Below, one piece after another: positions 12,580-47,734 of a stretch of DNA of 64,000 bases (its first letter is position 1; each line of letters begins with the position of its first letter). Made by a program: the position numbers and the translations under genes. The stretch is taken from NCBI GenBank assembly GCA_963849325.1, contig CAWKHF010000006.1, forward strand, positions 320,001 through 384,000. The letters run 5' to 3'. The stretch is from an uncultured Planctomycetota bacterium (GTDB taxonomy: Bacteria; Planctomycetota; Planctomycetia; Gemmatales; Gemmataceae). The notes beneath the pieces were generated by a model. That model saw nothing but the letters and a program-made list of their open reading frames with translations, ran no database searches and had not been told where the DNA came from.

Positions 12580-12592
12580 CGGCCCGCGGAGT

Positions 12593-26296: not shown

Positions 26297-26635
26297 TTAT
26301 CCACAAGTCCGCAGCCAAAAGCTACAGGTAAGTAAGATATAGGTAACTATAATATAGGTTTGTGCGACCAACTTACCGTGGCGGAACCCGCAGTTTTCCG
26401 TCGGGGCCGCGACCAAGTTACCGTGGACCCCGCGACCAAGTTACCGTGGATAACTTTCCTTCCGCGCTACTTATCCACAGGAATAGTCACACAGGAGGAG
26501 CGCGACCAAGTTACCGTGGCTACGGCACGGGCGTTCAAGCGGTTACGGGGTTCTGCTGGATCGCCTTCTCCACCCCCATTCCTTGAGAAGCTGCGGCCTT
26601 TCGCCATGATTGCGAGCGCGACCAACTTACCGTGG
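26297..26635. promoter_or_regulatory. Plasmid-type replication origin: five 18-bp iterons, DnaA boxes and an AT-rich tract
   Basis: GCGACCAA(G/C)TTACCGTGG at 26364, 26409, 26432, 26502 and 26618. TTATCCACA at 26297 and 26471; inverted GTGGATAA at 26446. AT-rich stretch ~26325-26360. Lies directly downstream of repA. Confidence 0.85.
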
Positions 26636-26687
26636 TTCATTTGCTGTAATTCAAGGCGTTGGTGTTCCGGCCGCACGTAGGGCTTGG

Positions 26688-27603
26688 TCACAGCAACTTT
26701 GGAGCGGTGGGCTGGCGTGCGACAGGAGGCGGACTGTGCGATAAGGTCAGGCCGCCATCGTCGGCTGAGATACGGGCGGCTGGATAGGCCGAGGCGACAT
26801 GATGGAGGGTTTGCAGGAACCTGCGACGGAAGTCGCGGACGCGGGCGAATCCTTGCCCGAATTGTTCGTGAAGGGAACTCCACGCGACAAATTGCGGCTT
26901 TGTGGCGGGCACACGGTGAAGCCTTTGGGCAAGCCAAACGTAGATGTCGAGGGCCATGGACGACGAGGACAAAGCGGCCACCGCCCGGTGGTCCAGAGGG
27001 ACGGCGTGCTGGCCTAAGCTCTGGAAATACTCTTCGCTCAGGCGGACGGTGGACGGCCAAAGGACGCGCTGGTCGGCCTGCTTGGGGAACCACAGGTCGA
27101 AGGCGCTGACGAACTGGGTGTTGACCTGGACGGCCCTTCCCTCTTCCACCACGCCCATGCGGCACGGTCGCGGCGGCAAGGCGGGCGAGTTGGTCTTTGA
27201 GCGAGCGGAGTTGCTGCCCGTTGGTTTCGAGGCCAAGCGAGCGGGCGAATGCGGTCATGGATTCCTCGACATCGACGACCGGCGATCCGGTGCGGACGGC
27301 TTCGGTCGCCAGGTGGATGAGTACAAGTCTGGGCTTTTCGCCATAAGGCAACCCCAGCCTCTTGAAGTCGCCGGTGCTGGGGTCAATGGCGGAACCCGCC
27401 TCGATGCGGAGCGACGCCTTGCCCTGCCGGCGATCCCATTCGAGAACGCCCTCGCCGGGGTTTTTGTAAGGGATGCCACACTGACACTGGACCGCGTGGA
27501 GGAAATTGATCCTGTCTGGCGGCGCATTGCGGATCGCGGTTGACGTGTCGAGAAGCCGTTGCTGGTGTTTGGTGAGAGTCAGCCTCGCATAGTCCTTGGT
27601 CAT
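26688..27603 (-). CDS. repA: Plasmid replication initiator RepA (RepA_C-like); frameshift near 27165
   Basis: 'FLHAVQCQCGIPY...GLPYGEKPRLVL...LKDQLARL' then 'LWPSTVRLSEEYF..L..HAVPLD..A...L..SSMALDIYVWLAQRLH...W..L..QFG'; adjacent to iterons. Confidence 0.8.
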
Positions 27604-27617
27604 GCCCGTCTGCCCCG

Positions 27618-27974
27618 TCAGCTCAGATAGCCGTTTGCGCGGAGCCAGGGTTCCAGGGCTTCTTCGAGTATGTCCTGAAGCGTGTTGGGGGTCGTGCCGC
27701 TGAGTTGCCGTTCCAGTGACGCTCGTTTGAGGGCGGTTGCGTAGTCGGTGCGGATTCTCGTGGTCAGCGGCTGACGGCCGACGGCGTTGACCGCCTGCGC
27801 CTTCCCTTCCCGCGTCTCCGTTACCCGTGCTTGCGGCGGGTTAGAGTCGGGAGCTTTCGGCTTGCGGGCAAACACGAAATCGTCTTCGACGGCGGGATCG
27901 ACGTTGCTGGCCGCGTTGATGCCCGCCACGAGCGGCCTGCGTTCCTTCACAGTCTTTACACCCTTGGCTGTCAT
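27618..27974 (-). CDS. Small ParA partner, probable type Ib centromere-binding protein
   Basis: ATGA-coupled to parA; C-terminal 'PLTTRIRTDYATALKRASL...LQDILEEALEPWL' fits a ribbon-helix-helix-like pattern. Confidence 0.6.
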   Translation of the reverse strand: MTAKGVKTVKERRPLVAGINAASNVDPAVEDDFVFARKPKAPDSNPPQARVTETREGKAQAVNAVGRQPLTTRIRTDYATALKRASLERQLSGTTPNTLQDILEEALEPWLRANGYLS

Positions 27975-28645
27975 CCGGCGGCCTTCCTGCGGAAGCGAGA
28001 CGACGACTTGATCTTTGCGGCACTTGGCAGCACCTCGCGGAATAGTGTATCGACTTCCTCGGCGGCCTCTTTGCCCCGAGAGCCAAGTTGCCAAACGACA
28101 GCCCCCTGGCCGGGGGCATCGGCATAAATCTGTTTCAAGGTCAGCGCCGTTTCGGCAAGCGGTAACTCCAGCGCAGTGGCTGCGTCTTTCATATCCTGGG
28201 TAAGCCGGTACGTTTTGCCGACCATGCTCAGCACGATCACGGCCTGCGGCTGGCCTCCCCGGATGTCCTGGGCTTGTCGCAGAACACTGGTGGCCTGGGC
28301 CAGTGCCCGGACTTCCAACATGCTCGCCTTGCAGGGCACGATGGCAAGGTCCGCGCGCAAGAGCAACGCCCGGCTCGTCTCGGTGTTGCTCCCCGGACCG
28401 TCGGCGACAACGAACTCGGTCTGCTGGGCCAGGATCGGCAGGCGGTCGAGGATTTCATCGGGGTCGGCGAGTCGCACGGCCCTCACCTCGGGAGCTGCTT
28501 CTTTAGCCCACTCGGATGAGGATTGCTGCGTGTCGCAGTCGGCGAGCGTGACGCTGTGCCCCTGCTGCTGTAGCCAGGCGGCGAGATGGACGGCGATGGT
28601 CGATTTTCCGACTCCGCCTTTGGAATTGGCAATGACGATAATCAT
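27971..28645 (-). CDS. parA: ParA-family Walker-type partition ATPase
   Basis: NSKGGVGKST deviant Walker A; DCDTQ; short type Ib length. Confidence 0.9.
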   Translation of the reverse strand: MIIVIANSKGGVGKSTIAVHLAAWLQQQGHSVTLADCDTQQSSSEWAKEAAPEVRAVRLADPDEILDRLPILAQQTEFVVADGPGSNTETSRALLLRADLAIVPCKASMLEVRALAQATSVLRQAQDIRGGQPQAVIVLSMVGKTYRLTQDMKDAATALELPLAETALTLKQIYADAPGQGAVVWQLGSRGKEAAEEVDTLFREVLPSAAKIKSSSRFRRKAAG

Positions 28646-28659
28646 GGGCCGGACCATAC

Positions 28660-28870: not shown

Positions 28871-29359
28871 CTGACCGCTGGAACGGTTCCATTCTGCCTA
28901 TGCCGTGCATAGGGAAGACGCCTGTCAACCTGGATTGCATTGTGAGGACGGCAAAAGTGCCCGGTTGCCACGTCCGGGAAACGTGGGTTTCTGCTGGTTC
29001 GTGGGAGGCCGGGGCGTGCCGGTGGCGGCATGGGGTGGCGGGGTGCGCCGATCCCGGCAGCTTGCTCGCGGAGCTGTCGGGAAAGCCCCCGCCCGCCAAG
29101 GGCGGTGGTCGCGTTTGTCAGGGGGGGACGATGCAGCCGAACGCCGGCGACCGCCGGCGTTCGGAACCTTGATGCTCAGCGAACTCGCGGTAGGCGACAT
29201 TCGTGGGGGCGGCTGGGGCCGGTTGGAGCCAGAGGAGGCTCATGGGGAGGCCGCGGAGGAGAGGTAGCCAATGGAGCCGGGACGGGCTGTCCCGGTCGGT
29301 TTCGGGGTGATGATCCGGAGCGGGTAGGAGGCCGGGCGGTCAAGCCCGGCCTGCTTTGG

Positions 29360-29860
29360 TTAGAACCGGATTTCGTCCGGCGTTGGTGGCTCGCAAGGCT
29401 TCTTGGTCCGACGCCGTTTCGGCTTCTGCTGGCCCGACGCCGGGAACAGCTCCTCAGCGGTACGCAGGATGGTGTTTCGGGTGATGCCGTGGTCTGCGTC
29501 ATGGTGATGATCGACCCGTTGCAGGACCTCCCATGCCTGATCGGCGGTCAGGTCGGGGCGTAGTTCCTGCACGTCCTCGATGCCCCAGATGGCCGCGATC
29601 TGCTTGTCGTGATGAAGGGTCCAGTGCGGGTAAGGGGGCAGCACCCAGCCGCCGCCCTGCAGGTTGAGGGCGGCAACCAGCATCCGGGCCTTGGCCTCGG
29701 CTATGGCCGCTTCGTCGGTGTCCGGCTCATCCCAGAAGTGGAGCTGAAGGATGCACTGGCCGTCCGCATCCTCGATGAGGAAGGTGTTGTCGCAGCCGTC
29801 GCTACTGCGGTGGTAGCTGTAGCGGTCTGTCGTCGGGTTGGTGTCCTGGTTATTCGGCAT
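29360..29860 (-). CDS. Hypothetical protein
   Basis: Overlaps the stop of the upstream ORF; 'IAAIWGIEDVQELRPDLTADQAWEVL...HHDADHGIT' is protein-like. Confidence 0.65.
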   Translation of the reverse strand: MPNNQDTNPTTDRYSYHRSSDGCDNTFLIEDADGQCILQLHFWDEPDTDEAAIAEAKARMLVAALNLQGGGWVLPPYPHWTLHHDKQIAAIWGIEDVQELRPDLTADQAWEVLQRVDHHHDADHGITRNTILRTAEELFPASGQQKPKRRRTKKPCEPPTPDEIRF

Positions 29861-30023
29861 AGGCTGCCTCCAGGCCGAAGAGCTGTTCTGCTTCGTAGCC
29901 GACCGGCAGGCCGTCTTCATCGAAGCGGAGCGGTGTGGTCTGAATCAGGTCGCGGATTTCGTTGGGGTCCCAGGCATAGGGGTCCAGGTCTTCGTAGAGC
30001 GGGATGTCGAGGGGATGGGTCAT
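29850..30023 (-). CDS. Very acidic 57-aa protein
   Basis: Below the ORF-track size cut-off: MTHPLDIPLYEDLDPYAWDPNEIRDLIQTTPLRFDEDGLPVGYEAEQLFGLEAAYAE. AAGGAG RBS upstream. Confidence 0.6.
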   Translation of the reverse strand: MTHPLDIPLYEDLDPYAWDPNEIRDLIQTTPLRFDEDGLPVGYEAEQLFGLEAAYAE

Positions 30024-30050
30024 GTGCGGTCTCCTTCCTAAAGTTGCAGG

Positions 30051-30216
30051 CCGCCCCGTGCGGCCTTTCCGGGGTCGGTCCCAAGCCGCCCCAGGGCGGA
30101 GGCGCAGCGCACGTGCAAGCGAAAGGCCGAAGGCTTCCGCGCAGCGGAAAGCGGCCTTGGCAGCTTGCAGGCTCCGGCGGGCGGCTTACGACCCTGGAGG
30201 GAAAGGCGGCGGGCGG
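30051..30216. promoter_or_regulatory. Long nested hairpin element, copy 1
   Basis: Nested inverted pairs CCGCCC/GGGCGG, GCCTTTCC/GGAAAGGC, AAGCCGC/GCGGCTT and GCAAGC/GCTTGC; homologous to 36225-36393. Confidence 0.6.
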
Positions 30217-30386
30217 TGTGTGACGAGACGGGCAAGGGATCGCGGGTGAGTCGGACCTGGCAGCCGGATCAGCGAGAAACCGTGCCAAGCCGAGGGGCGA
30301 GAAGGAGGGCGCCCGTGGTCCGGCCATGAGAGCGAAGGCGACGGGGGCGTCCGGGACGATAGGCGGGCTTCGTCAGCGGGTGGAGA

Positions 30387-31244
30387 TCAGACGCCGCACA
30401 TGCCGTCGCACTCCCCGGCGGTCATCGGGTCCACGGCTTCGGGAGCCAGAGTGTCGAAGTCGATGGCGAGCAACGGGAGACAGGAGCGGTGCAGATAGAG
30501 CTTCTGGTCCATGCCGCGATTGACTACGTTGCCCTCTTGCCGGAGGGCCTCGTCGATGGCGACGGCCCGTGCCCAGCCGGTCGGGTCGGATCGCCGCAGC
30601 TCCGCCCACTCCCGATTGGTATGGAAGGGACAGAACACGCAGGCGGAACGCGGGACGGGATGAGGCACGCGCTCGTGCAGCCAAGCCAAGCAATCCTGCC
30701 GCGTCCAGCCCATGTCCAGGAACGGGTAGACCGGCTTGGCCCAGGTCATCCCCTCGAAACGCCGCTTGGCACGGGCGGCTCTCCCGGCTTCATCTAGCGT
30801 GATGCCGAAATACTGGTGGACGAGGACGCCGCGCGGGATACGTTGCCGCGGTCGCAGGCCCAGCAAGTCCCGGCGGATGGCCCGCTCGATTACTTCCACT
30901 TTGTACTCCGCGGTGCATTGCCGGCGGACTCGTCCAGCCCGGAGTTCGCCGGGCGGTCGGGTGCGATGGTCGGGGGCGGTGAAGGCGGGGATGGAGGCGA
31001 AGCGGTGGCCCGTCGAGTTGCGGCCTTGCTGGAGATCGTCGCCCAGCCGCCCGGCGGTGCGGACCCAGATCGGCGGCTTGCCCAGGGAGAAGAGCCAAGC
31101 CAGGTGGCGGTAAACGGCGGCCGGTTCCTCCCCGGTATCGGCGAAGATGGCCACGTCGCAGGGGATGCGACCTTCGCGGGCCAAGAGGTAGAGGGCCGTG
31201 GATTGGACGCCGGCGCCGAGGTTGAGGACATGATATTCCGCCAT
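30387..31244 (-). CDS. PAPS-reductase-like / PP-loop adenine nucleotide alpha-hydrolase family protein, Cys-rich
   Basis: LNLGAGVQST, FADTGEE, RQCTAEYK, GITLDE, YPFLD, PRSACVFCPF and terminal ECDGMCGV. Confidence 0.7.
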   Translation of the reverse strand: MAEYHVLNLGAGVQSTALYLLAREGRIPCDVAIFADTGEEPAAVYRHLAWLFSLGKPPIWVRTAGRLGDDLQQGRNSTGHRFASIPAFTAPDHRTRPPGELRAGRVRRQCTAEYKVEVIERAIRRDLLGLRPRQRIPRGVLVHQYFGITLDEAGRAARAKRRFEGMTWAKPVYPFLDMGWTRQDCLAWLHERVPHPVPRSACVFCPFHTNREWAELRRSDPTGWARAVAIDEALRQEGNVVNRGMDQKLYLHRSCLPLLAIDFDTLAPEAVDPMTAGECDGMCGV

Positions 31245-31366
31245 GTAGGTCCGTAGCTGTTGCGATATGACCCGACAGGAATAGCATGCCGGTGCTGGCG
31301 TGGCAACCGGGTTGATGCGGGCGGCAGGATCAGTTTCCGGCTCCATTGCGGAGTAGTCCCGCCCGA

Positions 31367-32446
31367 TCAGGGGCAGAGGGAATGCCGAGTGCGAACGCGG
31401 CGAATCGTTCGGCTGTTTGCGCCGAGCGAGCGCCCGAGCTGGTCGGCGGGGACAGGGCCGGCGCTGTCGGTCATCAACGCCAGGGCGGCGTCGGAGAACC
31501 GGCACCCGGCCTGGATGCCTGCCGGCAGCGGAGCGGAGACGTGCCCGCAGGCGGTGCAGCGGAACCGACTGCGGGTGAGAAGTAGCCGCACTGACCGGCC
31601 CTGATGAGGACGGTCGATTACTTGGGTTGCCCTGACCCCGTGGCTGGCCAGCCGGGTAGCATCGGGGGCCGAGCGGTGGCAGCGTGGGCAGGAGGTCGGT
31701 TCCGTGTGGTAGCGAACGTGAACGATATAACCCGACTCCCCGGCGACGATCTGCTCGACGGTCCATCCCTCTTGAGCATAAATGCGATTGCCCATTCCTC
31801 CACGGAAGAAGGCCGCTGGCGTCGTTGCTGTCTGAGTCGTGGGATGGCCGTGGAGATGGGCAAGCCAGCGGAGGGCGAGGGGTATGCGCTGGTCCGGCCA
31901 GCGTGAGAAGCCGGAACCGTCAATACTGTCGCACCCCAGCTGGTAGGCGTGCCGGAACCGCTTCTTGGTATTGCAGCGGCCGAAATGGGTCCACTTCCCG
32001 CGGGCCTTGGCTTCGCGGGTCAGTGCGGCGGCGGCCGGGCCGAGTTTCCAGTCGGTGCTGCCGCCGATGAAGAGTGCGTCGAGTTGGTCCCACGGGATGG
32101 GATGATGGTCGAGGCCATCCTGGGCGACCAGTGCGACGGGGAGGCCCAGGGCACGGATTGCCGGCGCCCAGACGGGGAGCAGCCGTAGCGTTGCGGCAGC
32201 GTCCCCCACGACATCGGGACAGGCGACGAAGCGGCAACCGGCATTGCCGGCAATGCGGCCGAGCATGCGACAGAAGGCGGCCGGGTCGAAGCCGGTGAAG
32301 GCGGCATTATCAGCTGCCCACGGCAGTTCGGACCGGAGCACCGTCTCGACGCTGTTACGGGCACCCGGAACGAGCAAGGCCCCCAGGTGGGGCGAGGAAC
32401 CGTATCGGCGTAGGGTGGACGTGGCCCCGGAGACGAGCAGACGCAT
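31367..32446 (-). CDS. TGT/DpdA-like TIM-barrel protein continuous in frame with an ISL3-type zinc finger and HTH-like segment
   Basis: WAADNAAF, PDVVGD, AQDG, FIGGSTDWK, HFGRCN and GCDSIDGS; then CPRC...HG....VIDRP..G..V.L...R.RFRCTACG. Confidence 0.55.
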   Translation of the reverse strand: MRLLVSGATSTLRRYGSSPHLGALLVPGARNSVETVLRSELPWAADNAAFTGFDPAAFCRMLGRIAGNAGCRFVACPDVVGDAAATLRLLPVWAPAIRALGLPVALVAQDGLDHHPIPWDQLDALFIGGSTDWKLGPAAAALTREAKARGKWTHFGRCNTKKRFRHAYQLGCDSIDGSGFSRWPDQRIPLALRWLAHLHGHPTTQTATTPAAFFRGGMGNRIYAQEGWTVEQIVAGESGYIVHVRYHTEPTSCPRCHRSAPDATRLASHGVRATQVIDRPHQGRSVRLLLTRSRFRCTACGHVSAPLPAGIQAGCRFSDAALALMTDSAGPVPADQLGRSLGANSRTIRRVRTRHSLCP

Positions 32447-32550
32447 GACGGTTTCGACAGGTAGTGGTAGACAAGGTGGAAAATGCCACAGGCCGGCTCT
32501 CCACGCAACCGGAATTGTCACTCACGGTCACGTGGCAGCGTTGGCAGCTG

Positions 32551-33015
32551 TCAATCCGCACGCCCAGGGGCGTATCGCTCCCAGAGCAGTTTGGACTGGA
32601 TGGGGTGGCAGTCGTCCCGGTGCCGGGCGGGTCGGCTCCAGGAGCCGCCGCCCCGTTCGCCGACCAGTTGCCATCCGGCTGCCCGGAGGCTGGCGCCTCC
32701 CTCGCTCGGCAACGTGTAGGTGCCGATCCGCCGGTAGCCCAGGGCGAACGCCGCCCGAGCAGCGGCCCCGTACAGGAACGAGCAGGCGTTCCGACTGCCA
32801 TCGGTGCAAAGGCGGGTTACTTCCAGCGTGAGGCCGTCATCGCGGACGCGCGAGACGGGCCGGCCGATGATGGCGACGCCGACGACCTGGCCGCTTTTCA
32901 AGGCAGCCAGGGAGAACTTGTGCCCGACCACCGGCGGGTGGTGCCGGTGGTGCCGCTGGACGAAGGCGTTGGCGTCCGCCAGCGTGATGGGGAGGAGGGC
33001 GAGCCGGCCGGTCAT
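32551..33015 (-). CDS. XF1762-family protein (GNAT/Mom-like fold inferred)
   Basis: ANAFV..HHRHH, GVAIIGRPVSR..DDG.TLEVTRLCTDG..NACSFLY, TYTL..E.G.SL.AAGW. Confidence 0.75.
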   Translation of the reverse strand: MTGRLALLPITLADANAFVQRHHRHHPPVVGHKFSLAALKSGQVVGVAIIGRPVSRVRDDGLTLEVTRLCTDGSRNACSFLYGAAARAAFALGYRRIGTYTLPSEGGASLRAAGWQLVGERGGGSWSRPARHRDDCHPIQSKLLWERYAPGRAD

Positions 33016-33227
33016 GGGTCCAGAGCATACTGCTGGGCCGGCCGTGGCGCAATCGCTTTGGGGCGGCCGTTCTTTTCGGCCAGTGCTTGCTCATAGAGTT
33101 GGTAGGCCCGCTGGCGGGTGGCCTCGCTGTCGGGCCACCCCTGCCGGGCGTGTGCCTGCTCCAGGAACGCGGCGAAGGCGCAGGCGTGGAAGAGGCCGTC
33201 CAGGATTTCATCGGGATCGCCGCTCAT
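33012..33227 (-). CDS. Hypothetical protein
   Basis: ATGA-coupled on both sides within the operon. Confidence 0.6.
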   Translation of the reverse strand: MSGDPDEILDGLFHACAFAAFLEQAHARQGWPDSEATRQRAYQLYEQALAEKNGRPKAIAPRPAQQYALDP

Positions 33228-33670
33228 GGTTGGCCTCTCCTGCGGTTGTGGCTCGGCTCTGGATAAGAGCGGCCGGTGATTCGCGCAAACACTTCCTCGG
33301 CGTGTTGGCGGGTATCGAAGTCGCCGACGGCCTGGACGCCCTCTCCGGGGATGTGGCCGTACAGGGTCCAGAAATCCGCCTCGGACGGCTCACAGGGTTC
33401 GACGAACGACACCTGCGGCTCGTCCCTGTCGAGGTAGCGTCGGCAAGGCTGGATTTCGTAATCGTCGAAGCGAACCGGGCCTTCCGTTCGCTGATGAGGC
33501 AGCTGGGATGCAGTGTCCCGGCCGGCGTCGAAGGCGGCTTTCAGGGCCGTTTCGACTTGCCAAACAGCAACGTCGTGGAAGTCCAGGCTGTCCGAGCGTC
33601 GGGTTTCCAGGGTGGCGATGCCCAGATGCTCTCTGGCAATGGACGTGAGGATTTGACGGGAACGGTTCAT
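33224..33670 (-). CDS. DUF6900-like domain protein
   Basis: IAREHLGIATLETRRSDSLDFHDVAVW....AL.AAF.AG motif. Confidence 0.7.
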   Translation of the reverse strand: MNRSRQILTSIAREHLGIATLETRRSDSLDFHDVAVWQVETALKAAFDAGRDTASQLPHQRTEGPVRFDDYEIQPCRRYLDRDEPQVSFVEPCEPSEADFWTLYGHIPGEGVQAVGDFDTRQHAEEVFARITGRSYPEPSHNRRRGQP

Positions 33671-33682
33671 GGTGGAGTCCTT

Positions 33683-33952
33683 TCAGGATTGAGGGTTAGA
33701 CAGGCTCAGAAGGGCAGAGGCCCCGTCGGACACCTCGTAGGTGATGGTGCCGGCAGCTTCGTTGATCTCCACCGGGATGGAGCCGCTCAGTAAGCCTCGG
33801 GCCTCTTCGACGGGCAGCCCGTAGCCGTCGCTGAGGATTTGGACGGTGCGTTGGCGCGTCTTCCCCTTGATGCGGTAATCGTTCTGCAAGGCACGGAACA
33901 ATCCCGGTGTGTGGAACATCGGGGTACTGGTCAGTTGTTTGCGGGTGGTCAT
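33683..33952 (-). CDS. Hypothetical protein
   Basis: AAGGAG RBS; in operon. Confidence 0.6.
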   Translation of the reverse strand: MTTRKQLTSTPMFHTPGLFRALQNDYRIKGKTRQRTVQILSDGYGLPVEEARGLLSGSIPVEINEAAGTITYEVSDGASALLSLSNPQS

Positions 33953-33980
33953 AAAAACTCCTTTCGGTTGGTGATTGGGG

Positions 33981-34739
33981 TTACTTCTCGAAGATCATGC
34001 ACGCGTCATGCAGGCCGGGGATGAAGCTGCTGCGGTAGACCTTCCGCGAGCTGCTGGCCCCGTGGCTGAACCGGATAATGTCCGTACCGTGCTGGCGAAG
34101 GCCAACGGCGAAAGCAAGCCGCTTCGTGTGGTAGGTGAGGGGGACAAACCCGGCTTCTCTGTCGCTGTAGTCGCCCATCAGGATCGCCAGCTTTCCACCC
34201 GGTTTCAAAACACGGGCGCAGTTACGAATGAACTGGCCGTAGCGGCGCAGGAACGCCTCCAGGGTCGGAGCGCGGGACAGGTCGCGGGGATCGTCGGCGT
34301 AGAGCTTCTGCCGCCAGTAGGGCGGGTGCGCCCAGATGAAGTCGAACGCCTCGGCGTCGGAAAACCCCTGCGGGTCGCAAGCGTCAATCCCGCGGTGGAT
34401 GTCCCAATCCAGGCAAGGGACTCCGAGTTCCTGGCATACTTCCGAGCATGTCCCGCTACCGCTCATGGGGTCCAGGACCAGGCCGGGCTTGAAGTAGAGG
34501 AGCAAGTCCTTGATGAGATTGCCGCCGCAGTTGCCGGGGTAGCTCCGTTTGCCGTAGTCTCCAGCCACGTGGAAGTGATACAAGCTGGTCAAGTGTGGCA
34601 CCGGGCTGGCGTTCTTCGGCGCCTTCGGTAGCTTGGCGTATAGGACCTGCCCGTGCTCAGGATGGGTTTGCGGCTGGAGCGCGGGTGCGACTCGTTTGAA
34701 GCGAGCGGCCAAGAAGGGATTGATGATAAGCTGTTGCAT
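33981..34739 (-). CDS. Orphan DNA amino-methyltransferase (N4-C/N6-A type)
   Basis: VLDPMSGSGT (SAM-binding motif I) and HPPYW (catalytic motif IV); LKPGG. Confidence 0.8.
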   Translation of the reverse strand: MQQLIINPFLAARFKRVAPALQPQTHPEHGQVLYAKLPKAPKNASPVPHLTSLYHFHVAGDYGKRSYPGNCGGNLIKDLLLYFKPGLVLDPMSGSGTCSEVCQELGVPCLDWDIHRGIDACDPQGFSDAEAFDFIWAHPPYWRQKLYADDPRDLSRAPTLEAFLRRYGQFIRNCARVLKPGGKLAILMGDYSDREAGFVPLTYHTKRLAFAVGLRQHGTDIIRFSHGASSSRKVYRSSFIPGLHDACMIFEK

Positions 34740-34748
34740 GGTGATCTC

Positions 34749-35300
34749 CTATTTGTTTGTGGTTGTTGAAACGTTGGCCCAGACCCATTCCTCAATGGCG
34801 GACTCCGCGGCCTGCTGGAGTCGGATCGCCGTCAGGGGCGGGAGATCGCCGGTTTGCGCCTGGGGATAGCGCTGCACGACGACGTGCCAGAATGCGGCCA
34901 GGGCTTCTTCGGCCACCGGCCGATTCGTTTCGTTGGTTGCCTCGTGGCTCCCTTGGCTGCCGGCGAGGTAGCCGCCATAGGCTCTCCAGGTGAAATCACT
35001 GGTATCGACCACGACGATGCCGGCGTTGCCGGGACTCTCGGCTTCCATTTCGTCCGTTCGGCGAAGGTCCGCCAGCGAGAGGGCGTTGGACCATAGGCCG
35101 AGGCTCAAGTTGCCCTCGATGTTGGCGTGGCAGATGCCCACGAAGCGGGCGGCGGCGTAAGCCGCGTCGCCGAAACGTCCGTGCATGATTGCCTTGAACT
35201 GGTCCAGCCAGCGGGGCACGGCGTCGCCGTGCCAGTGCAGGTAGACGGTTGGTGAAACGCGGTTGTGGTCGAAGAAGAGGACGCAAGCTCGGTTGCCCAT
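34749..35300 (-). CDS. Hypothetical protein
   Basis: MGNRA...VYLHWHG N-terminus; in operon. Confidence 0.6.
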   Translation of the reverse strand: MGNRACVLFFDHNRVSPTVYLHWHGDAVPRWLDQFKAIMHGRFGDAAYAAARFVGICHANIEGNLSLGLWSNALSLADLRRTDEMEAESPGNAGIVVVDTSDFTWRAYGGYLAGSQGSHEATNETNRPVAEEALAAFWHVVVQRYPQAQTGDLPPLTAIRLQQAAESAIEEWVWANVSTTTNK

Positions 35301-35302
35301 AG

Positions 35303-35578
35303 TCAGATTCCTTTCAAATCGGTGGTGGATGATGCGGTGCGGACGGCCTTTCGCAGCGGCCCCTCGAAGCGGTCTCCCCGCCAGGAATTGGAGCCGAAGG
35401 CGATGTCTCCGGCGGTCAGCTTGTCCACGTCGAGCACGGCACAATGGGCTTCCTGCTCGAAGAGGATGGCGACCTTGCGGCTGCCTTCCGGCCCGGTGTC
35501 CTCGAAGAGGATGACGGCGAAGGGAGCGCCACCGATGCCGTTACGGTGATGGGCGAGGGCGATGATCTGGAGATTCAT
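35303..35578 (-). CDS. Hypothetical protein
   Basis: GGAGG RBS; HRNG..G.PF and NSWRGD motifs. Confidence 0.6.
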   Translation of the reverse strand: MNLQIIALAHHRNGIGGAPFAVILFEDTGPEGSRKVAILFEQEAHCAVLDVDKLTAGDIAFGSNSWRGDRFEGPLRKAVRTASSTTDLKGI

Positions 35579-35590
35579 GGCTGCCTCCTG

Positions 35591-35932
35591 CTACGCTTCG
35601 TCGGATTCGTCGTCCTGGTCGATGAACTCGACCCAGACCCTGGCGACGCGGCCTTCGTCGTTGAACTCCGCGTAGACGGGGTAGACTCCATCCCCGTAGC
35701 CGGTGGAAACCACGATGCCGAGACCGGCATGGCCCAGGTCGTAGCCGAACTGCTTGCAGACGGGGTACTGGCCGTCGTCGCGGAGGATGTCGCAGAATTC
35801 GCCCCAGGTCTTGCCGATGGCCTTGGGCGGCTGCTCGGTGTGCAGGATGTAGCAGGGGTCGCCGATCCAGCACAGGCCGGCGTCCACGCCGATTTCGCCG
35901 ATTTGTTTGCGAGTGATGCGGTTGGTATTCAT
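35591..35932 (-). CDS. DUF4241-like protein
   Basis: GVDAG...GDPCY...STGYGDGVYPVY. Confidence 0.6.
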   Translation of the reverse strand: MNTNRITRKQIGEIGVDAGLCWIGDPCYILHTEQPPKAIGKTWGEFCDILRDDGQYPVCKQFGYDLGHAGLGIVVSTGYGDGVYPVYAEFNDEGRVARVWVEFIDQDDESDEA

Positions 35933-35985
35933 AGCCGATTCCTTTCGGTTAGGGCGGGCTTTTGGCCCGCCCCGGTTGATCCTGA

Positions 35986-36198
35986 TTACTTCTGCTCCTG
36001 CACCCGGAGGGCGATGCGGCCGCTGAGGGGCACCACGTCGAAGAGGATGTCGAAGCCCTTGCCGTCCTTGTGGGAGAAGGCGACGCCGATCTCCGTCCAC
36101 TTCGAGTCCTTGCCTTCGCGGTCGCGGATCGAGTAGGCGATGTGGCTCGGCTTTCTCTTGGCTTTGCCGCTGTTTTCCGTGTTCGTGTTCTCAGACAT
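35986..36198 (-). CDS. Small beta-rich plasmid protein, candidate ssDNA-binding protein
   Basis: WTEIGVAFSHKDGKGFDILFDVVPLSGRIALR; AGGAG RBS; first gene downstream of hairpin copy 2. Confidence 0.6.
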   Translation of the reverse strand: MSENTNTENSGKAKRKPSHIAYSIRDREGKDSKWTEIGVAFSHKDGKGFDILFDVVPLSGRIALRVQEQK

Positions 36199-36224
36199 GT
36201 GCTTTCTCCTTGTTGAAGTTTCAG

Positions 36225-36393
36225 CCGCCCCATGCGGCCTTTCCGGGAACGCGCCGAAAGCCGCGGCAGGCCGGGAGGCGTCAGCCCGTAGCGGGCAAGC
36301 GGAAAATTGGGGGAGACCTTCAGGGGGAACCGATTTTCCGCTTGCCTGTCCCGGCGGCGGCTTTAGCGTCCCTGAGAGAAAGGCCGGGGGCGG
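36225..36393. promoter_or_regulatory. Long nested hairpin element, copy 2
   Basis: CCGCCCC/GGGGCGG, GGCCTTTC/GAAAGGCC, AAGCCGC/GCGGCTT, and inner stem GCAAGCGGAAAATTGG/CCGATTTTCCGCTTGC. Confidence 0.6.
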
Positions 36394-36665
36394 GCTGTTA
36401 CGGAGAGGGCAAGGAGAAAGCGGCGCGAGCATGAACCGGAAGCGGTAGTGTCAGAAGAATAGCCGGGACCGCTGGCTGGAGAGCACCGAGAAGAGACAGG
36501 ACGGGGGGCGAGGGTGGAAGGCGTTCCCGCGGCTGTGCGGGCCAGGCCCCTGATCGCCCTGGTAGGCAGGCGCGTAGCGGCCGGGTGCGAGCAGGAGATG
36601 CGTTCAACCGGAGGATGGCGGGGGCCGACCGGCGTAAGAAAGAAGGCTAAGATCCGCGTGCAGGT

Positions 36666-36974
36666 TCAGAGGCCCAGACGCGGGCGTGGCGCCAGTTGGA
36701 GTGCGTTGTCGAGCGCGTCGATGATCGTCGCTGTGTCGCCTCTCAGCACCGCCCTATCGCTCTGCACAATGCCGATGCCCTTGAGCATCCGGTCGAAGCG
36801 TTCTTCGCGCAGGGCGTTCCCCCGCGCAGGCACTTCAAACTCCAGAACGTGCGTGATCCCCGTGTCGTCCTCTTCGAGCTTCGACGTGGCCACGAAATCG
36901 TAGGGCTTGAGGCCGTGACGCTCGGCGAGCGCATTGACGCGCGTCAACACGGCGACATCCTGGTTGTCGATCAC
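36666..36974 (-). CDS. Hypothetical protein
   Basis: GGAGG RBS and a GTG start overlapping the stop of the response regulator. Confidence 0.55.
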   Translation of the reverse strand: MIDNQDVAVLTRVNALAERHGLKPYDFVATSKLEEDDTGITHVLEFEVPARGNALREERFDRMLKGIGIVQSDRAVLRGDTATIIDALDNALQLAPRPRLGL

Positions 36975-37414
36975 GAGTTTCCTCCCTGATGGTTGGGGAA
37001 CGGTCTGCCGGCGCCTGCCGGTCCCGGACTGTCCCTGGTAGACAGGTGCAATAACCGACTCACCCAAGAGGCCATGTCATGGGCCGTGAACGGCTTGGGA
37101 AGGAACAGCGTGGCCCCGGCCGCTTGCGCTTCCTTGGCGCTGGAATGCTCCTCGTGGCCCGAGATGGCAATGATCGGGGTGGTGGCATAAGCAGGTAAAC
37201 GACGCACCTGCTTGATGAGTTCCGTCCCGGACATTCCGGGCATGACCAGGTCCACAATGAGAAGGGCCAAGGCGTGTTCCTGCGCCTGCGTGAAGGCCCG
37301 GCTGCCGTTGGCAGCGCCCGCTACGTAGACCGGCAGGTCACGAAGGGCGAAGCGGATCAAGCTGATGATGAGCGCATTGTCGTCAACCACCAGGACGGAG
37401 GCGTTCTCCTTCAT
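36971..37414 (-). CDS. Single-domain CheY-like response regulator
   Basis: VLVVDD, DLVMPGMSG, PIIAIS, FLPKPF. Confidence 0.9.
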   Translation of the reverse strand: MKENASVLVVDDNALIISLIRFALRDLPVYVAGAANGSRAFTQAQEHALALLIVDLVMPGMSGTELIKQVRRLPAYATTPIIAISGHEEHSSAKEAQAAGATLFLPKPFTAHDMASWVSRLLHLSTRDSPGPAGAGRPFPNHQGGNS

Positions 37415-37511
37415 GACGCACGGTTCCCTTTCGCATAAAGCCGATGTCCCAGACTGCCACAGAATCGTTAAGCAATCGTTTCCTTTTGCAGACGAAGGGC
37501 CCGGACGCTCC

Positions 37512-38420
37512 TTACTGCATCCGAATCCGGAGGGAGCACGGCCCGGCGGTGCCCGGATGGTCTTCGGTCACGTTGTACCTCCACTCGCGGCGTTTCTGAT
37601 TTTCCACGGCGACGACACACGCGGGCTGTGTGCCGCTGGAGGCCTCTGAGGGTTCCTCGTTGACACCGGCCAGCCCCCGGGCCTGGACGAGACCGTTGTC
37701 GGGAAGTCCGTCATCGATTTTGCTGTCCAGCGCCGAGGCCAGGGCAGGGGTTAGGCCCTGGCTGCCGTATTGATAGGACGGCAAGGGCGTGGCCCGCACT
37801 TCCGTCACCGGCAAGAGCTGAAAATAGTTGGCTCCGCGGAAGGCGTAAACGATGAGGTACTGGCCGGGAGCGATGCGGGCGGCGGGAAGCAACGCCTCCA
37901 CCTCCGTGCAGTTGCCCGCGACCTGGCCTGACGTTTCCACGATCCGGGCGTTGCCTCGCCGGCCAAACGATCCCGATACCAGGTTGGCGTCGGAGAGATG
38001 ATGCCAGAATGACAAGGTTTCCCCAGCCGGCATGGTGGCCTCCGCGGCGCCGCCCTCGATGAGTCCGTTGCCGTCCTGATGGCCCTGGCGGCCCGCCAGC
38101 GTGGTCTCGGAGAAAAACCCGAACGCCGAGGCCCGGCTGGTAGGGATGTCTCCCGGCAACGCATTGTATTTCATCCGGAAGGTATTGACGGCTGATGTAA
38201 GCGTCTCCAGCTGGGCTACGGTAGCCCGCACGTGCGCGGCCTGGAGGAGATGGGTCATGCTGAGCACTCCTGCCGCAATCAAACCGACGACGGTGAAAAC
38301 CACCGCCATCTCGATCAGCCGGACTTCGGCAAGGCGTCGTGTGAGCGATGGCTGCGTGTCCTCTTCTGCTCCGTCAACGAGGACCAGCGGGCGGTGAACC
38401 GTGGAGTGGGAGTCACTCAT
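37512..38420 (-). CDS. Type IV pilin/pseudopilin-like protein with a degenerate cleavage site
   Basis: 'LIEMAVVFTVVGLIAAGVL' helix, AVNTFRMKYNALPGD and LDSKIDDG; lacks the canonical G|F site. Confidence 0.65.
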   Translation of the reverse strand: MSDSHSTVHRPLVLVDGAEEDTQPSLTRRLAEVRLIEMAVVFTVVGLIAAGVLSMTHLLQAAHVRATVAQLETLTSAVNTFRMKYNALPGDIPTSRASAFGFFSETTLAGRQGHQDGNGLIEGGAAEATMPAGETLSFWHHLSDANLVSGSFGRRGNARIVETSGQVAGNCTEVEALLPAARIAPGQYLIVYAFRGANYFQLLPVTEVRATPLPSYQYGSQGLTPALASALDSKIDDGLPDNGLVQARGLAGVNEEPSEASSGTQPACVVAVENQKRREWRYNVTEDHPGTAGPCSLRIRMQ

Positions 38421-38893
38421 CCGCGCGAAAGGTCGTCATCAAAGTTGCGTCGCATGTGGAGACGGCCGGCATGGCTGTGCCGGGCGGCGTCCAGGAGGAA
38501 GAGAGCGAGCCGGGTGTGGCCGGACGAGGAAGCCCAATCGAACGGGGTGTAACGCCACTTGTCCTGGGCCACGGGGTCAGCGCCTCCTTTTAGGAGCAGC
38601 CGCGCCAGGTCAAAAAGGCCGTTTCGGGCCGCCCCATGCAGGGCGGTCTGTTGCTGATGATCTTGGGCACGCAGGTCGGTGCCTGTCTCGATCAGCAGGC
38701 GGGCCAGGTCGCCCTGCCGCGCCTCGATGGCACAATGCAGCGGCGTCCGCTGCCTGTCATCCCGGGCATTGACATCGGCCCCGGACGCCAAGGCCGCCTC
38801 GGCGTCTTTGCGATTACCGCTGGCCGCGGCCTGGAAGAGTTGGCTGGTCGCTTCCTGGGGTGTCATGCGGTCCTCCTTGACGTGCCCATCCAT
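38417..38893 (-). CDS. Ankyrin-repeat protein
   Basis: GADVNARD...TPLH.A, TALHGAA, GAD...TPF. Confidence 0.85.
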   Translation of the reverse strand: MDGHVKEDRMTPQEATSQLFQAAASGNRKDAEAALASGADVNARDDRQRTPLHCAIEARQGDLARLLIETGTDLRAQDHQQQTALHGAARNGLFDLARLLLKGGADPVAQDKWRYTPFDWASSSGHTRLALFLLDAARHSHAGRLHMRRNFDDDLSRG

Positions 38894-39465
38894 GCTAACG
38901 GAAAAGGGTTAACAAACCTTTACCGCCAGCGTCTCCGCAACGCGAGCGTCGAGGTCCGCCTCAGCCGGTCCAACGAACGACACGGACCAGGCGGGTCGTG
39001 TCGGACGGGCGAGGAGCGCAAGGCAAGGCTTGCCAGAATGATCCGGATGGTGCATGGTGCGGGGATGCAGAAGCGAAAGAAGTCGAAAGGTCTTTTCTGG
39101 ATCGAAGTAGCGATCGCCCTGGTAGCTGTGGGATTGTTCACCGGCATGTTCCGGCTAGGTCTGGCCTTGCGGCAGCTTATCCAGTGACTTATCCAGTCAG
39201 TCCCAATCGGAAGGCTGCGGATGCGTGAGTGACGGAGCGGGGGCAGGCCCCGCAGCACCGGCTGCACCGAGCGGAAATTGGGTGAAGAGCGGAGGCTGTT
39301 TCCGCGCGGCCTTCCGGTCATCGCGGCTTGTCAGGATTGCGGCAGCGAAAGGCGGTCCTTGGGAACGCCATACACGGACAAGCCACTGGATGAGAACGAA
39401 GATCGTGGAGTAATAAAATGGTAACCATAACATGATACAATTTAGGAGCATGTCCAGGAAAAGGA

Positions 39466-40221
39466 ATGGTTATGGCCGATAAGATAGCCGAATTGGTGAA
39501 AGATCCCCAAGTGGCCAAGGAAATAGCGCATTTACGGAAAGTCTTGGAGCTGCCCGATTACGAAGGGATACGCCAGAAGGTTCTTCAAGACCCCGCGGTC
39601 GTTGCCACAAGGGACAACTTCAGGGCCCAACGCCAAGCCTTCCCCGCTGAAATATCCCAACTGTTAGCCGGCGGCCTTCATGAGCGTTTCGTTCCAGAGA
39701 TAACCAAAGGCAGCCGGGTGATTGACAAAGAGGCGCTCGTTAAATCCGTGACGCCGGAAGAAGCGAACAAAGAAATAAATGCGATGGAACAAGAAATGGC
39801 TGCGGTTGAAAACAGGTGGGACATGCTTGGAACCAAGCTCTCTCTGAAAGACATGAGTACGGCGACCTTTATCGCCTCGGGTATGGGCGAGGGTATGTCC
39901 TCGAAGAAGGCAGCGGTCGCACTCCAAATACTGACGGAACGTGACAATCTTGCCTACCGGATACAAGATACCAAGGAGCGCGCCATTACACCGGAAGACA
40001 AAGCCAAGCTCATGGCTCTGGATCGGAAAAATGTCGTAACGGAAGCAGAAGTCGATCTGGCAGTTACAACTCGGCTGGAAAAACTTGGTGTCCATACCCA
40101 AAAAGACCCAGCGCTAGTCGAACTGATTACGAATGCCGTGAAGAATAATAACTCTATTTCCAACACTCCCCCTGCCCCTGAGCCTAAACAATCAAGAGAC
40201 AGTGGCATAAGCCGCTTCTAA
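39466..40221 (+). CDS. Hypothetical helical protein, low GC
   Basis: 251-aa ORF with lower GC than its flanks; ends in PEPKQSRDSGISRF. Confidence 0.7.
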   Translation: MVMADKIAELVKDPQVAKEIAHLRKVLELPDYEGIRQKVLQDPAVVATRDNFRAQRQAFPAEISQLLAGGLHERFVPEITKGSRVIDKEALVKSVTPEEANKEINAMEQEMAAVENRWDMLGTKLSLKDMSTATFIASGMGEGMSSKKAAVALQILTERDNLAYRIQDTKERAITPEDKAKLMALDRKNVVTEAEVDLAVTTRLEKLGVHTQKDPALVELITNAVKNNNSISNTPPAPEPKQSRDSGISRF

Positions 40222-40331
40222 GGGACTATCCACTGTCCCCTGGCTGCTATCACGGAAACGTCCCAAATATCTGGTTGCATCCGTGCGATTTCAGTCTTAA
40301 ATACGCACTCAAACCAATGTACGAGGCAACC

Positions 40332-40586
40332 ATGTCCCACTCGAATAGCCCTGCTGACAAGATCCATGATGAGGAACTACGCGCCTTCGCTGCGGACAAG
40401 GCCGCTGGCCAACGCACGGTCTTTATCACCCTCGACTTGCCCACGAGGCACGTCGATTTCCGCACCGTACCCACTGGAGACGGTCCGCACCAAGTACCCA
40501 CTCGCGTTCGTCCCCCAACCGAGGCCGAGCAGGAAGAAATGCGCGCAGGATCGCCGAGGCTCGCGCGTTTCTCGCTGAAGTCTTGA
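40332..40586 (+). CDS. Small hypothetical protein, paralogue of 18951..19244
   Basis: Same alignment as given for 18951..19244. Confidence 0.55.
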   Translation: MSHSNSPADKIHDEELRAFAADKAAGQRTVFITLDLPTRHVDFRTVPTGDGPHQVPTRVRPPTEAEQEEMRAGSPRLARFSLKS

Positions 40587-40770
40587 ATGAGGATCCTCAA
40601 TGGATGGCTGCCGCCCGGGCCTTCGTCGTGAAGGTGACGAGCGAGCAGCTCTCCACGATTGCCGGTTCGCCCTTGATTCAAGAGATTCTCCCGAACCGCC
40701 AACTTCGCGGCCGCGGCCATTGAAACTTGGCTTGGTCGGATCAAAGAGGGGACTCTCCACCGGACGACAC

Positions 40771-41744
40771 TTATTTGCCCCGCCCAGCTTGCGGTGCCGC
40801 CACGGGCGGCGCAGACCCCTCGGCAGGTGCCAAGGTCTCGATTTGATGGACGAGGCGGTTGAACCCGGTCAGGGTGGCCTGATCCAGCGTGTTGTCCAGA
40901 ACGGCGGTGGTCAAGTGGTCCTGGAGCGCTTGCTTCGCCCGGAAGAGAGCTTTGCTATCCTTGTGGTCCAAAGCGTCCCGCGCATCCCGCAAGTCCTTTT
41001 GCAGTTCCTTGGGCAGCGTGGCCTGGCTCAACTCCTCCAGGCTCTTGACCACGGCCGCTTGTTGCTCTGCCTTCACTTGGGTTCGCTGCTCCTGCCATTG
41101 CCGGAACTGATCGACCGCCTGGACCATTCCTGGGTCTTTGGGGTCGGGCGGAGTGAAGCGGGCCAGGTTCTCTCGGTAACTACCGCTCACCTCCGCGGTG
41201 ACATCCTGGATCACCTTCTCGTAATAGGAGGCCGGATGCTTACCTTGAATCGGGAAGGTCAGGTAGGGCAGCCCGCTGGTCTTGCTGGTGCCGGTGCGGG
41301 TCGTCTCCCGGAGTTCCTCGGGAAGTCCGGCTTTGGCCGCCGCCACGGCCTCGGGGCTGTTGAAATACAGGGTGACGCTCGGCGTCGGTTCGCCTTTGAG
41401 GTGGTCTACCCGGACGTGGGCGTGCCGGTCCTTTTTGATGAGACCGTCCACTTGGGCGCCGATGCCGAGCTTCTGGCATAGGCGGAGAACTCTGGTGGGG
41501 TAAGAGTAATGTGGGATGCTAAGTATTTTCGGCCGCGACCATTTTCCTGGAGGCTGCTGTCCAGGCCGGATCGTTGGAAGAGGCGGTGAGCGGTTCGGGC
41601 ATCCGCCTCGTGGAAGGACGAGTAGCTTATTTTATACTGGCCGGCGCCATCCCGCCGGACCCCCAGGTCGATGGTCTCCGGAAGGCGCAGCGTTTTTTTC
41701 AGGAGATCGACCAGACTTCTTTCGGTTTTGGATTCGAGCGGCAT
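40771..41744 (-). CDS. Hypothetical protein (two ORFs probably joined by a frameshift near 41470)
   Basis: 41406..41744 and 40771..41451 overlap and are both protein-like; GAGGAG RBS upstream of 41744. Confidence 0.55.
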
Positions 41745-41779
41745 GGTACTCCTCTGCGCGAGCGGTGGTTACGACTACC

Positions 41780-47602: not shown

Positions 47603-47734
47603 CCATGTTATTTCGGTATCTTGGTGGACGTGTGGGCGCTCCGTGTACGGGGAGCTTTGTCGTTCGTTGATGAATAATTAAGGTATCGAGAGTAGAATAC
47701 GATAAGGATCGTATTCGTGGAGGAAGCCTAACGC

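Follow-up and report, generated by a model that had tools for sequence, protein, structure and literature searches.

A probable anti-restriction island with four candidate nucleic-acid-modifying enzymes on an integrated conjugative element of a planctomycete

Hypermodification of DNA is best known from phages. Here we describe a run of bacterial genes that encodes four different candidate nucleic-acid-modifying enzymes, and we compare it with the described systems that it recalls. The window, that is the whole stretch of 64,000 nt that was analysed, covers positions 320001-384000 of contig CAWKHF010000006.1 (C6) in an 8.16-Mb genome of an uncultured soil bacterium of the Gemmataceae, which is 84.7% complete. 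Coordinates below are those of the window unless a contig is named. The enzymes are an amino-methyltransferase, an XF1762-family Mom-like protein, a TIM-barrel protein fused to an ISL3-type domain and a PAPS-reductase-like PP-loop protein. We consider it fairly likely that an integrated conjugative element carries this region as a cargo island, which would stack independent DNA-marking routes for surviving restriction in new cells and would not form one obligatory pathway. The four enzymes would then probably mark DNA chemically so that it escapes restriction in new hosts. Among the readings that we considered, this one was the best supported.

Several described systems are relevant here. Mom of phage Mu carries out a tRNA-dependent reaction (glycyl-tRNA) that yields N6-carbamoylmethyl-adenine, and its helix-turn-helix (HTH)-like insertion (residues ~175-209) is essential for activity, according to the accessible text of PMC13219725. 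The DpdA of phage 9g, expressed alone in E. coli, inserts dPreQ0 into plasmid DNA, many phages carry only dpdA, and YhhQ is a preQ0 transporter (accessible part of PMC6884629). Phage PAPS reductases have been proposed as anti-defence genes, and PAPS reductases and Mom homologues were listed as phage candidates in 2026 (accessible part of PMC13551039). In plasmids, anti-defence islands of the leading region hold an orphan methyltransferase and anti-restriction genes on one strand near the relaxase (Samuel et al. 2024, accessible part of PMC11541004).

In the window, the four enzyme genes are intact, all lie on the minus strand and are closely spaced. Apart from some gene borders, which were corrected, coordinates and family matches confirmed the first-pass annotation, made from the sequence letters, which had named four different, co-oriented candidate enzymes of this kind. 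They form part of a longer run, about 11 genes that all lie on the minus strand (30387-36195). Read from 5' to 3', it consists of orf148, a DUF4241-like gene, orf91, orf231, the methyltransferase, orf89, DUF6900, orf71, XF1762, TIM-barrel/ISL3 and PP-loop, so that three small genes (orf89, DUF6900 and orf71) separate the methyltransferase from XF1762, and the TIM-barrel/ISL3 gene stands between XF1762 and the PP-loop gene. From the methyltransferase to the PP-loop gene the intergenic gaps are 28, 12, -4, -4, 104 and 122 nt, and among the upstream genes (34749-36195) they are 2-53 nt. There were 12 terminator-like sites in 29000-42200, none of them on the minus strand within 30387-36195. A scan for sigma-70 promoters was uninformative (1 site vs 2.4 expected). 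The nearest protein relatives come from Gemmataceae, a planctomycete family.

In searches against four collections (Pfam, NCBIfam, PHROGs and PADLOC), ten open reading frames (ORFs) of the cassette gave no match to a nuclease, QueC, QueD or QueE family, and the earlier remark that the cassette has no cognate nuclease and no queC/D/E was borne out. The gene order is fully conserved, with 77-96% amino-acid identity, in two metagenome contigs, L361 (110 kb) and L362. Compared with L361, the ratio of nonsynonymous to synonymous substitution rates (dN/dS) was 0.15 for the methyltransferase, 0.25 for XF1762, 0.14 for the whole fused TIM-barrel/ISL3 gene and 0.08 for the PP-loop gene (0.08-0.61 across all 13 genes tested). 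These ratios show that the four enzyme genes are under purifying selection.

The first of the four encodes an N6/N4 amino-methyltransferase of 252 aa (33981-34739, minus strand). It matched Pfam N6_N4_Mtase (PF01555; E 8.4e-9, 36.1 bits, cut-off 26.7) and PADLOC MTase_II (E 8.3e-14). Motif I, DPMSGSGT, at aa 90-97 precedes motif IV, HPPY, at aa 138. Both DPMSGSGT and H-P-[PA]-Y are kept in the relatives, the latter in 6 of the 6 whose match spans the motif. The enzyme would methylate adenine N6 or cytosine N4, with no partner nuclease.

The XF1762-family protein (154 aa, 32551-33015, minus strand) matched NCBIfam XF1762_fam (NF045478; E 6e-63, 211 bits, cut-off 50) and phrog_1384, 'Mom-like DNA modification protein' (E 1.8e-37). 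Its AlphaFold2 (AF2) model was built on 29 sequences and reached a pLDDT of 87.5. The top PDB match of the model was phage Mu Mom (8bv8_B, E 7.5e-9, TMq 0.76), and ordinary GNATs ranked behind it, so the relationship to Mom that had been judged from motifs holds at fold level. XF1762 shares with Mu Mom the GNAT fold and the PHROG description, and it is carried by mobile elements beside methylases. Other observations weigh against a closer equation. The protein is only 154 aa long and stays under the gathering cut-off of Pfam Mom (PF25680; 16.7 vs 27.1 bits, profile positions 3-131 of 202). Nothing in it corresponds to the HTH-like insertion, as the chain ends at residue 154 and the model shows no helix past 112, and the protein has invariant motifs of its own (HRHH, GHK and GRP). 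Further, XF1762 is often paired with a PP-loop gene, while Mu Mom is not reported to need one. By its predicted structure, XF1762 has a Mom-like fold but is not a Mom. Literature searches found no paper containing 'XF1762'.

The TIM-barrel/ISL3-domain protein (359 aa, 31367-32446, minus strand) begins with a minimal TIM-barrel domain (aa 1-217, 31796-32446) and ends with a zinc ribbon and HTH of ISL3 type (aa ~243-359, 31367-31795). The N-terminal ~210 aa matched phrog_15826, a family of unknown function (E 3.8e-53), and the AF2 model (pLDDT 92.5) shows alternating strands and helices. The nearest Pfam-bearing ESM-Atlas cluster was DUF6610 (score 0.90), which has been equated with DpdA4 (accessible part of PMC10516641). 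Compared with predicted viral structures, the barrel gave 33 matches at E <= 0.001; 7 of them bear the name queuine tRNA-ribosyltransferase, and phage tRNA-guanine transglycosylases (TGTs) are among the best. Likewise, in 12 of 27 phage records the gene is called DpdA-like or queuine tRNA-ribosyltransferase. By tblastn the barrel was 46-55% identical to actinophage 'DpdA-like tRNA-guanine transglycosylase' (StevieRay gp54, Aoka gp40, Sonali gp81).

We analyzed the gene neighbourhood in 161 loci (80 genomic, 80 viral and the window). The commonest neighbour of the TIM-barrel gene was a Vut_1/YhhQ-type gene, which stands immediately upstream in the same orientation in 61 of the 161 loci. A representative of this neighbour matched Pfam Vut_1 (E 1.8e-10), and tblastn recovered it in 56 loci. 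QueC-like genes were present in 6/161 loci and QueE-like genes in 4/161. In Arthrobacter phage Sonali the TIM-barrel gene lies 2.4 kb from ParB-like, TGT, QueC, QueD and QueE genes. Gene context, phage naming, fold among viral models and the DUF6610 cluster all point to a 7-deazaguanine transglycosylase. The TIM-barrel fold, the YhhQ-type transporter and the QueC/QueE linkage are also what the protein has in common with phage DpdA (bDpdA and DpdA1-4, in the accessible parts of PMC6884629 and PMC10516641).

A second group of results weighs against this assignment. In the structure comparison with PDB, TIM barrels filled the lists, and pyruvate kinase (Z 15.6) outscored TGT (3unt, 13.9), Cap10 (13.8), ArcTGT (13.5) and DpdA (7ui4, 12.7); Foldseek against PDB listed only generic TIM barrels. 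The barrel had no match to a TGT or DpdA model of Pfam, NCBIfam or PADLOC at E <= 0.01. PF01702 (TGT) and PF20314 (DUF6610) matched 0 of 37 family members at E <= 10, profile searches of PDB sequences returned no TGT or DpdA, and hhalign against 30 planctomycete Tgt proteins gave P of only 0.38-0.42. PF20314 also matched none of 301 planctomycete genomes, the window's own genome included. Since no TGT or DpdA sequence model matches the barrel, the label 'TGT/DpdA' rests on context and fold. The DpdA relationship proposed in the first-pass annotation therefore stands by gene context, public phage annotation and fold among viral models, and draws no support from sequence.

TGT enzymes have a zinc-binding subdomain, CxCxxC...H, and two catalytic aspartates (D102/D280). 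The TGT-type CxCxxC motif was not seen in the TIM-barrel domain (alignment A1), and the sole zinc ribbon of the protein is the C-terminal one of ISL3 type. Among the aspartates of the barrel, D78 and D176 do not vary, and at least 90% of 85 sequences share D46. The non-significant hhalign alignment puts WAADN opposite LTDSGGFQ and CDSvDG opposite GvDlFDCV; in the same alignment WAADN, QDG, FIGGS, HMGR and CDSxDG are in register with LTDSGGFQ, VQGG, IGGLS, LMGVG and DxFDCV of the host Tgt, which is consistent with a TGT and goes no further. Compared with phage DpdA, then, the domain is small (~200 aa), has no visible CxCxxC and has no HMMER-level match to PF01702, PF20314 or a solved DpdA; the gene also differs in its place on a conjugative element and in its fusion to a transposase zinc ribbon/HTH of ISL3 type.

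The host genome encodes QueC, QueD, QueF and Tgt, with the queC matches on contigs other than that of the cassette, and no Vut_1 was found in it. Therefore a stand-alone TIM-barrel enzyme could use host preQ0 or preQ1, as phages that carry only dpdA would draw on host preQ0 (accessible part of PMC6884629). It would swap guanine in DNA for a 7-deazaguanine (preQ0/preQ1) supplied by the host. The main QueC is on contig C12; a second, weaker QueC-like gene (85.6 bits) adjoins PTPS/QueD at C3:163075-164111.

The first-pass annotation had missed the C-terminal ISL3-type domain. This part matched NCBIfam transpos_ISL3 at positions 2-109 of 370 (E 4.6e-8) and Pfam Zn_ribbon_ISL3 (0.0018), without a DDE domain. 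Of the 120 best homologues, 30 (310-378 aa) have an ISL3-like domain in which the zinc-ribbon cysteines CPxC...CxxCG are conserved. An insertion sequence remnant between two genes had been thought of because GGAGGA..ATG occurs at 31795; it was rejected on the fusion in 30/120 homologues and the dN/dS of 0.14. Judged from this conservation, the fusion is a genuine domain architecture, which makes DNA the more likely substrate of the barrel, and the ISL3 domain may give site targeting: a domesticated transposase zinc ribbon/HTH would tether or target the enzyme to DNA. In a Fimbriiglobus metagenome-assembled genome (L010, 8001-12437), the TIM-barrel/ISL3 gene matches in two parts, query aa 1-158 and query aa 157-305, with 3.5 kb between them, which looks like a split by an insertion. 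In Erythrobacter phage ZS04 (H26) the gene that covers the match to the TIM-barrel domain is annotated as 'DarB-like antirestriction protein', and BFVD A0A6J5LU57, an 877-aa 'ART-PolyVal-like domain-containing protein', is a looser structural match (20% identity). Therefore the domain may also occur inside large polyvalent proteins.

The PP-loop protein (285 aa, 30387-31244, minus strand) matched phrog_424 'PAPS reductase' (E 1.7e-38) and PADLOC SspD (E 3.6e-12), and it had no match to Pfam PAPS_reduct at E <= 0.01. A 459-aa ORF running to 31766 was rejected as the gene, as the homologues are 278-292 aa long. The N-terminus carries a P-loop-like GAGVQS. In alignment A3 (35 sequences) C110 (RRQCT) and C202/C205 (CxxC) are invariant, and C283 in the ECxGxCG tail is kept in at least 90%; these cysteines fit an Fe-S or persulfide site. 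The only solved structure that matched the profile was chain 21fy_C 'PptA' (270 aa, E 0.0011), for which literature searches gave no explanatory paper. A PP-loop-type N-terminus, conserved cysteines and the SspD match are shared with DndC/SspD. Unlike those enzymes, the window protein is not accompanied by DndD/DndE or SspB/SspC, which are absent from the ten cassette ORFs in all four collections and whose absence weighs against the reading favoured here; where it has a partner, this is XF1762.

The mobile setting that had been proposed for the genes was upheld by a TrwC-type relaxase, RepA_C, ParA, a coupling protein and a DarB-like antirestriction neighbour. The TrwC-type (MOBF) relaxase-helicase (42119-44815, plus strand; Pfam TrwC E 8.4e-73) is divergent from the cassette, and the type IV coupling protein (TraG/VirD4-like) is at 55380-57101 on the plus strand (PF02534 at C6:375716-376990, 230 bits). 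The DarB-like protein (1874 aa, 19386-25010, minus strand) matched phrog_10089 over ~1700 residues (E 0, 1565 bits) and contains methyltransferase and SNF2 helicase families (Pfam SNF2/ResIII/Helicase_C). This match makes it similar to phage P1 DarB, from which it differs in being the product of a conjugative element, next to the four enzyme genes, instead of a protein packaged in a capsid. Known anti-defence genes are present, namely the orphan methyltransferase and the DarB-like protein. The distance between the cassette and the start of the relaxase gene is 5.7-11.7 kb. The run is oriented away from that gene, with ParA, RepA and the DarB-like gene downstream on the same strand.

Five related elements are present in the genome, and in each of them a TrwC relaxase is accompanied by a TraG/VirD4-like coupling protein (5 coupling-protein and 6 relaxase matches, on contigs C1, C4, C5, C6 and C9; the coupling protein on C9 has two stop codons). 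The order cargo (minus), relaxase (plus), coupling protein (plus) is common to 4 of the 5. The locus resembles the plasmid leading-region islands (Samuel et al. 2024) in its orphan methyltransferase and anti-restriction genes, gathered on one strand near the relaxase; it differs in being an integrated planctomycete element with DpdA-like, Mom-like and PP-loop cargo. The words 'PAPS', 'Mom' and 'transglycosylase' are absent from the accessible main text of PMC11541004, and literature searches found no paper linking 'DpdA' with 'leading region'.

Some observations, on oriT, contig C9 and RepA, count against the island reading. As oriT was not located, we use the term 'leading region' tentatively, and on C9 the cassette sits between the relaxase and the coupling protein. 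A VirB4-type ATPase (PF03135) was not found in the 84.7%-complete genome. The replication/partition module (26363-28657, minus strand; Pfam RepA_C, ParA-type) comprises five 22-nt iterons (CGCGACCAAGTTACCGTGG..., repeat family D1), a RepA_C gene in two frames, orf158 and ParA. The iterons lie just beyond RepA; together these features are at 26467-27603 and 26363-26638. The N-terminal part of RepA is in a 378-aa ORF and the RepA_C domain in an overlapping ORF (26688-27236), which suggests a frameshift or an assembly error near 27230. Because RepA is in two frames, the element may be decaying.

We weighed whether DNA is not the substrate of some, or indeed any, of the enzymes. The TIM-barrel protein might then modify tRNA, the PP-loop protein might be an accessory of sulfur metabolism or tRNA thiolation, and XF1762 might acetylate proteins or aminoacyl-tRNA, for instance as a GNAT of toxin type. 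The substrate of TGT enzymes and of many PP-loop enzymes is tRNA, and no DNA activity is known for the TIM-barrel, PP-loop or XF1762 families. XF1762 also has no counterpart of the insertion that is essential in Mom, and PAPS reductases of viruses are commonly classed as auxiliary metabolic genes (PHROG category). On the other side are the transposase DNA-binding domain fused to the barrel in a quarter of its best homologues (the 30/120 above), the match under the 'DarB-like antirestriction' gene of phage ZS04, and the best structural match of XF1762, which is the DNA-modifying Mom. Further, all three families adjoin DNA methyltransferases and conjugation genes, and the window itself holds the orphan methyltransferase and the DarB-like protein. 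We regard this explanation as unlikely.

The co-occurrence of the genes was of two kinds: the whole order is kept in L361 and L362, and in other elements the genes are split into sub-combinations. The related elements share a backbone (orf148 ... ParA-orf158) and differ in cargo. The TIM-barrel/ISL3 gene is alone in L006 and L007, the methyltransferase occurs with the TIM-barrel gene in L009, with DUF6900 and the PP-loop gene in L201 and with the PP-loop gene in L204, and the PP-loop gene is alone in L209. Contig C9 of the same genome holds the methyltransferase, DUF6900, orf71 and XF1762. Since every sub-combination was present in related elements, we read the locus as a modular anti-restriction island. 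The second cassette on C9 (4800-11400) has its methyltransferase in two pieces and no TIM-barrel or PP-loop gene. On contig C4 only a 40-aa fragment of the PP-loop gene is left, beside ParA.

We also assembled 80 XF1762-centred and 80 PP-loop-centred (PAPS-reductase-centred) loci. A PP-loop gene was present in 17 of the 80 XF1762 loci, in 14 of them within 151 nt on the same strand and in both gene orders. These loci come from Firmicutes, Phycisphaerales, Methylococcaceae and Burkholderia, and adjacent pairs were also seen in Actinomycetota among the PP-loop-centred loci. The 14 are not 14 independent events, because the Firmicutes pairs are probably kin, and this weakens the case for a partnership. 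Neighbours of the PP-loop and XF1762 genes in other loci are C5 methylases and conjugative-element genes (DUF736, DUF7007, TraG P-loop, CD1107-like, DUF4315, NlpC/P60 and topoisomerase III). Both families have thousands of matches each. From this neighbourhood the two genes look like a facultative pair. A complex prediction for the two proteins (score 0.20 vs a mark of 0.32) counts neither way. We find it quite conceivable, just short of an even chance, that they work together; they would then act as a facultative two-gene module that makes a further nucleic-acid modification.

The first-pass annotation had suggested that the PP-loop enzyme makes or activates a base which the TGT-like enzyme inserts. 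Extended to all four genes, this would be one integrated hypermodification pathway, in which the PP-loop enzyme would make or activate the base, or complete it once on DNA, insertion would be the task of the TGT-like enzyme, and XF1762 and the methyltransferase would decorate the product. All four genes do lie in one run, which is kept in L361 and L362, and QueC, the maker of preQ0, is also a PP-loop enzyme. The PP-loop and TIM-barrel genes are adjacent in the opposite order in L075 and in L364 (5876-8032 of a 916-kb Gemmataceae-like contig, PP-loop directly before TIM-barrel/ISL3, 64% and 54% identity), and they lie ~1.1 kb apart in viral loci L103-L105. Micromonosporaceae loci L052, L057, L059, L074 and L079 hold PP-loop, XF1762 and TIM-barrel genes on one strand. 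However, Vut_1 is present in these loci too, so the PP-loop gene is no substitute for the supply of precursor. The counts argue against the suggestion as well: near the TIM-barrel gene a PP-loop gene was found in 11/80 genomic and 4/80 viral loci and XF1762 in 9/80 and 1/80, respectively, and a TIM-barrel gene was found in 1/80 PP-loop-centred and 0/80 XF1762-centred loci. The usual partner of the barrel is Vut_1, less often QueC, the specific partner of the PP-loop gene, where there is one, is XF1762, and related elements carry each gene without the others. Therefore a single pathway appears very improbable, and the stacking of independent routes agrees better with these counts.

Among the remaining genes of the run, the upstream genes orf148, DUF4241-like, orf91 and orf231 (34749-36195, minus strand) keep their order in L361; alignment of the upstream elements described below and tblastn coverage place the true start of orf148 at 36195 and that of orf231 at ~35300. 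Next to the methyltransferase, orf89 (33683-33952, minus strand) is a small conserved protein with a 91% identical copy in L361 (dN/dS 0.22) and no family match in Pfam, NCBIfam, PHROGs or PADLOC. The DUF6900 protein (148 aa, 33224-33670, minus strand) matched Pfam PF21841 (E 3.1e-24) and phrog_2555. Finally, orf71 (33012-33227, minus strand) overlaps each neighbour by 4 nt and has copies in L361, L204, L009, L010 and contig C9 of the same genome.

The least probable explanation is that the cassette is the modification half of a Dpd-, Dnd- or restriction-modification-type defence whose unrecognised nuclease cuts unmodified invaders: bacterial dpd and dnd clusters do pair modification enzymes with restriction genes (accessible parts of PMC10164549 and PMC12707154), orf89, orf71, orf91, orf231 and orf148 have no known family and the DarB-like protein has a helicase, but PADLOC matched only MTase_II/oMTase, mad2 and SspD on the ten ORFs and no nuclease, DpdB-K, DndF-H or SspE-H model, the small ORFs have just 57-183 aa, and the reading is weakened because gene-by-gene variation of the cargo would be lethal for a modification-dependent self/non-self system.

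Two similar upstream elements bracket the run as one unit. Copy 1 (36196-36440, minus strand) precedes orf148, and copy 2 (30024-30268, minus strand) stands directly after the PP-loop gene, before a 57-aa ORF (29850-30023). They share ~170 nt, and each ends in AAGGAGA..ATG; a shared 23-nt core occurs only at these two sites in the genome. As single-stranded DNA (ssDNA) each folds into one long hairpin of ~190 nt (copy 1, -75.7 kcal/mol, z -6.5; copy 2, z -3.3). They recall the ssDNA promoters of the plasmid leading regions (accessible part of PMC11541004) and, speculatively, may act as promoters, possibly on the incoming single strand. Read assembly from four DNA runs gave only short contigs of relatives. 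One read-derived contig joining 30023 to 36223 was not counted, as it has 25 letters on its shorter side and lies between repeat copies.

A more specific proposal would join these observations. XF1762 and the Cys-rich PP-loop protein would form a new two-enzyme hypermodification system of conjugative elements and prophages in many phyla, in which the PP-loop enzyme adenylates a base or the backbone and the GNAT delivers an acyl or aminoacyl group. The minimal DpdA-like enzyme with its captured ISL3 head would carry out site-directed insertion of 7-deazaguanine from host preQ0/preQ1, and the genes would possibly be expressed from hairpin promoters on the entering strand. Taken as a whole, we regard this proposal as doubtful. 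The ISL3-domain fusion, the pairing of XF1762 with the PP-loop gene and the conjugative-element setting are novel. The accessible text of Rakesh et al. 2024 (PMC10853773) makes no mention of Mom, TGT or DpdA.

These results suggest that several chemistries are combined in a single transcription unit of conjugative elements in soil bacteria, namely methylation, probably 7-deazaguanine and a Mom-like/PP-loop product. They also provide three leads: a compact DpdA-like enzyme of ~200 aa with a ready-made DNA-targeting domain, a very widespread and unstudied pair of XF1762 and a PAPS-reductase-like gene, and candidate single-strand promoters outside Proteobacteria. Should the products be confirmed, they would add to the known natural DNA modifications and anti-restriction strategies, and the enzymes could possibly be used for marking DNA. 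The TIM-barrel family was also found on 166 plasmid records.

Outside the cassette we observed some further genes. Directly after the relaxase (45860-50923) there is a two-partner secretion (TPS) pair, an ShlB/FhaC-type transporter and a 1062-aa TPS-domain exoprotein, which may be further cargo. Upstream of the element (4861-18459) lie genes for a 1731-aa Calx-beta protein and two TPR-repeat proteins (998 and 507 aa). The GC content is 0.69-0.71 at 8-18 kb and ~0.62-0.66 in the element.

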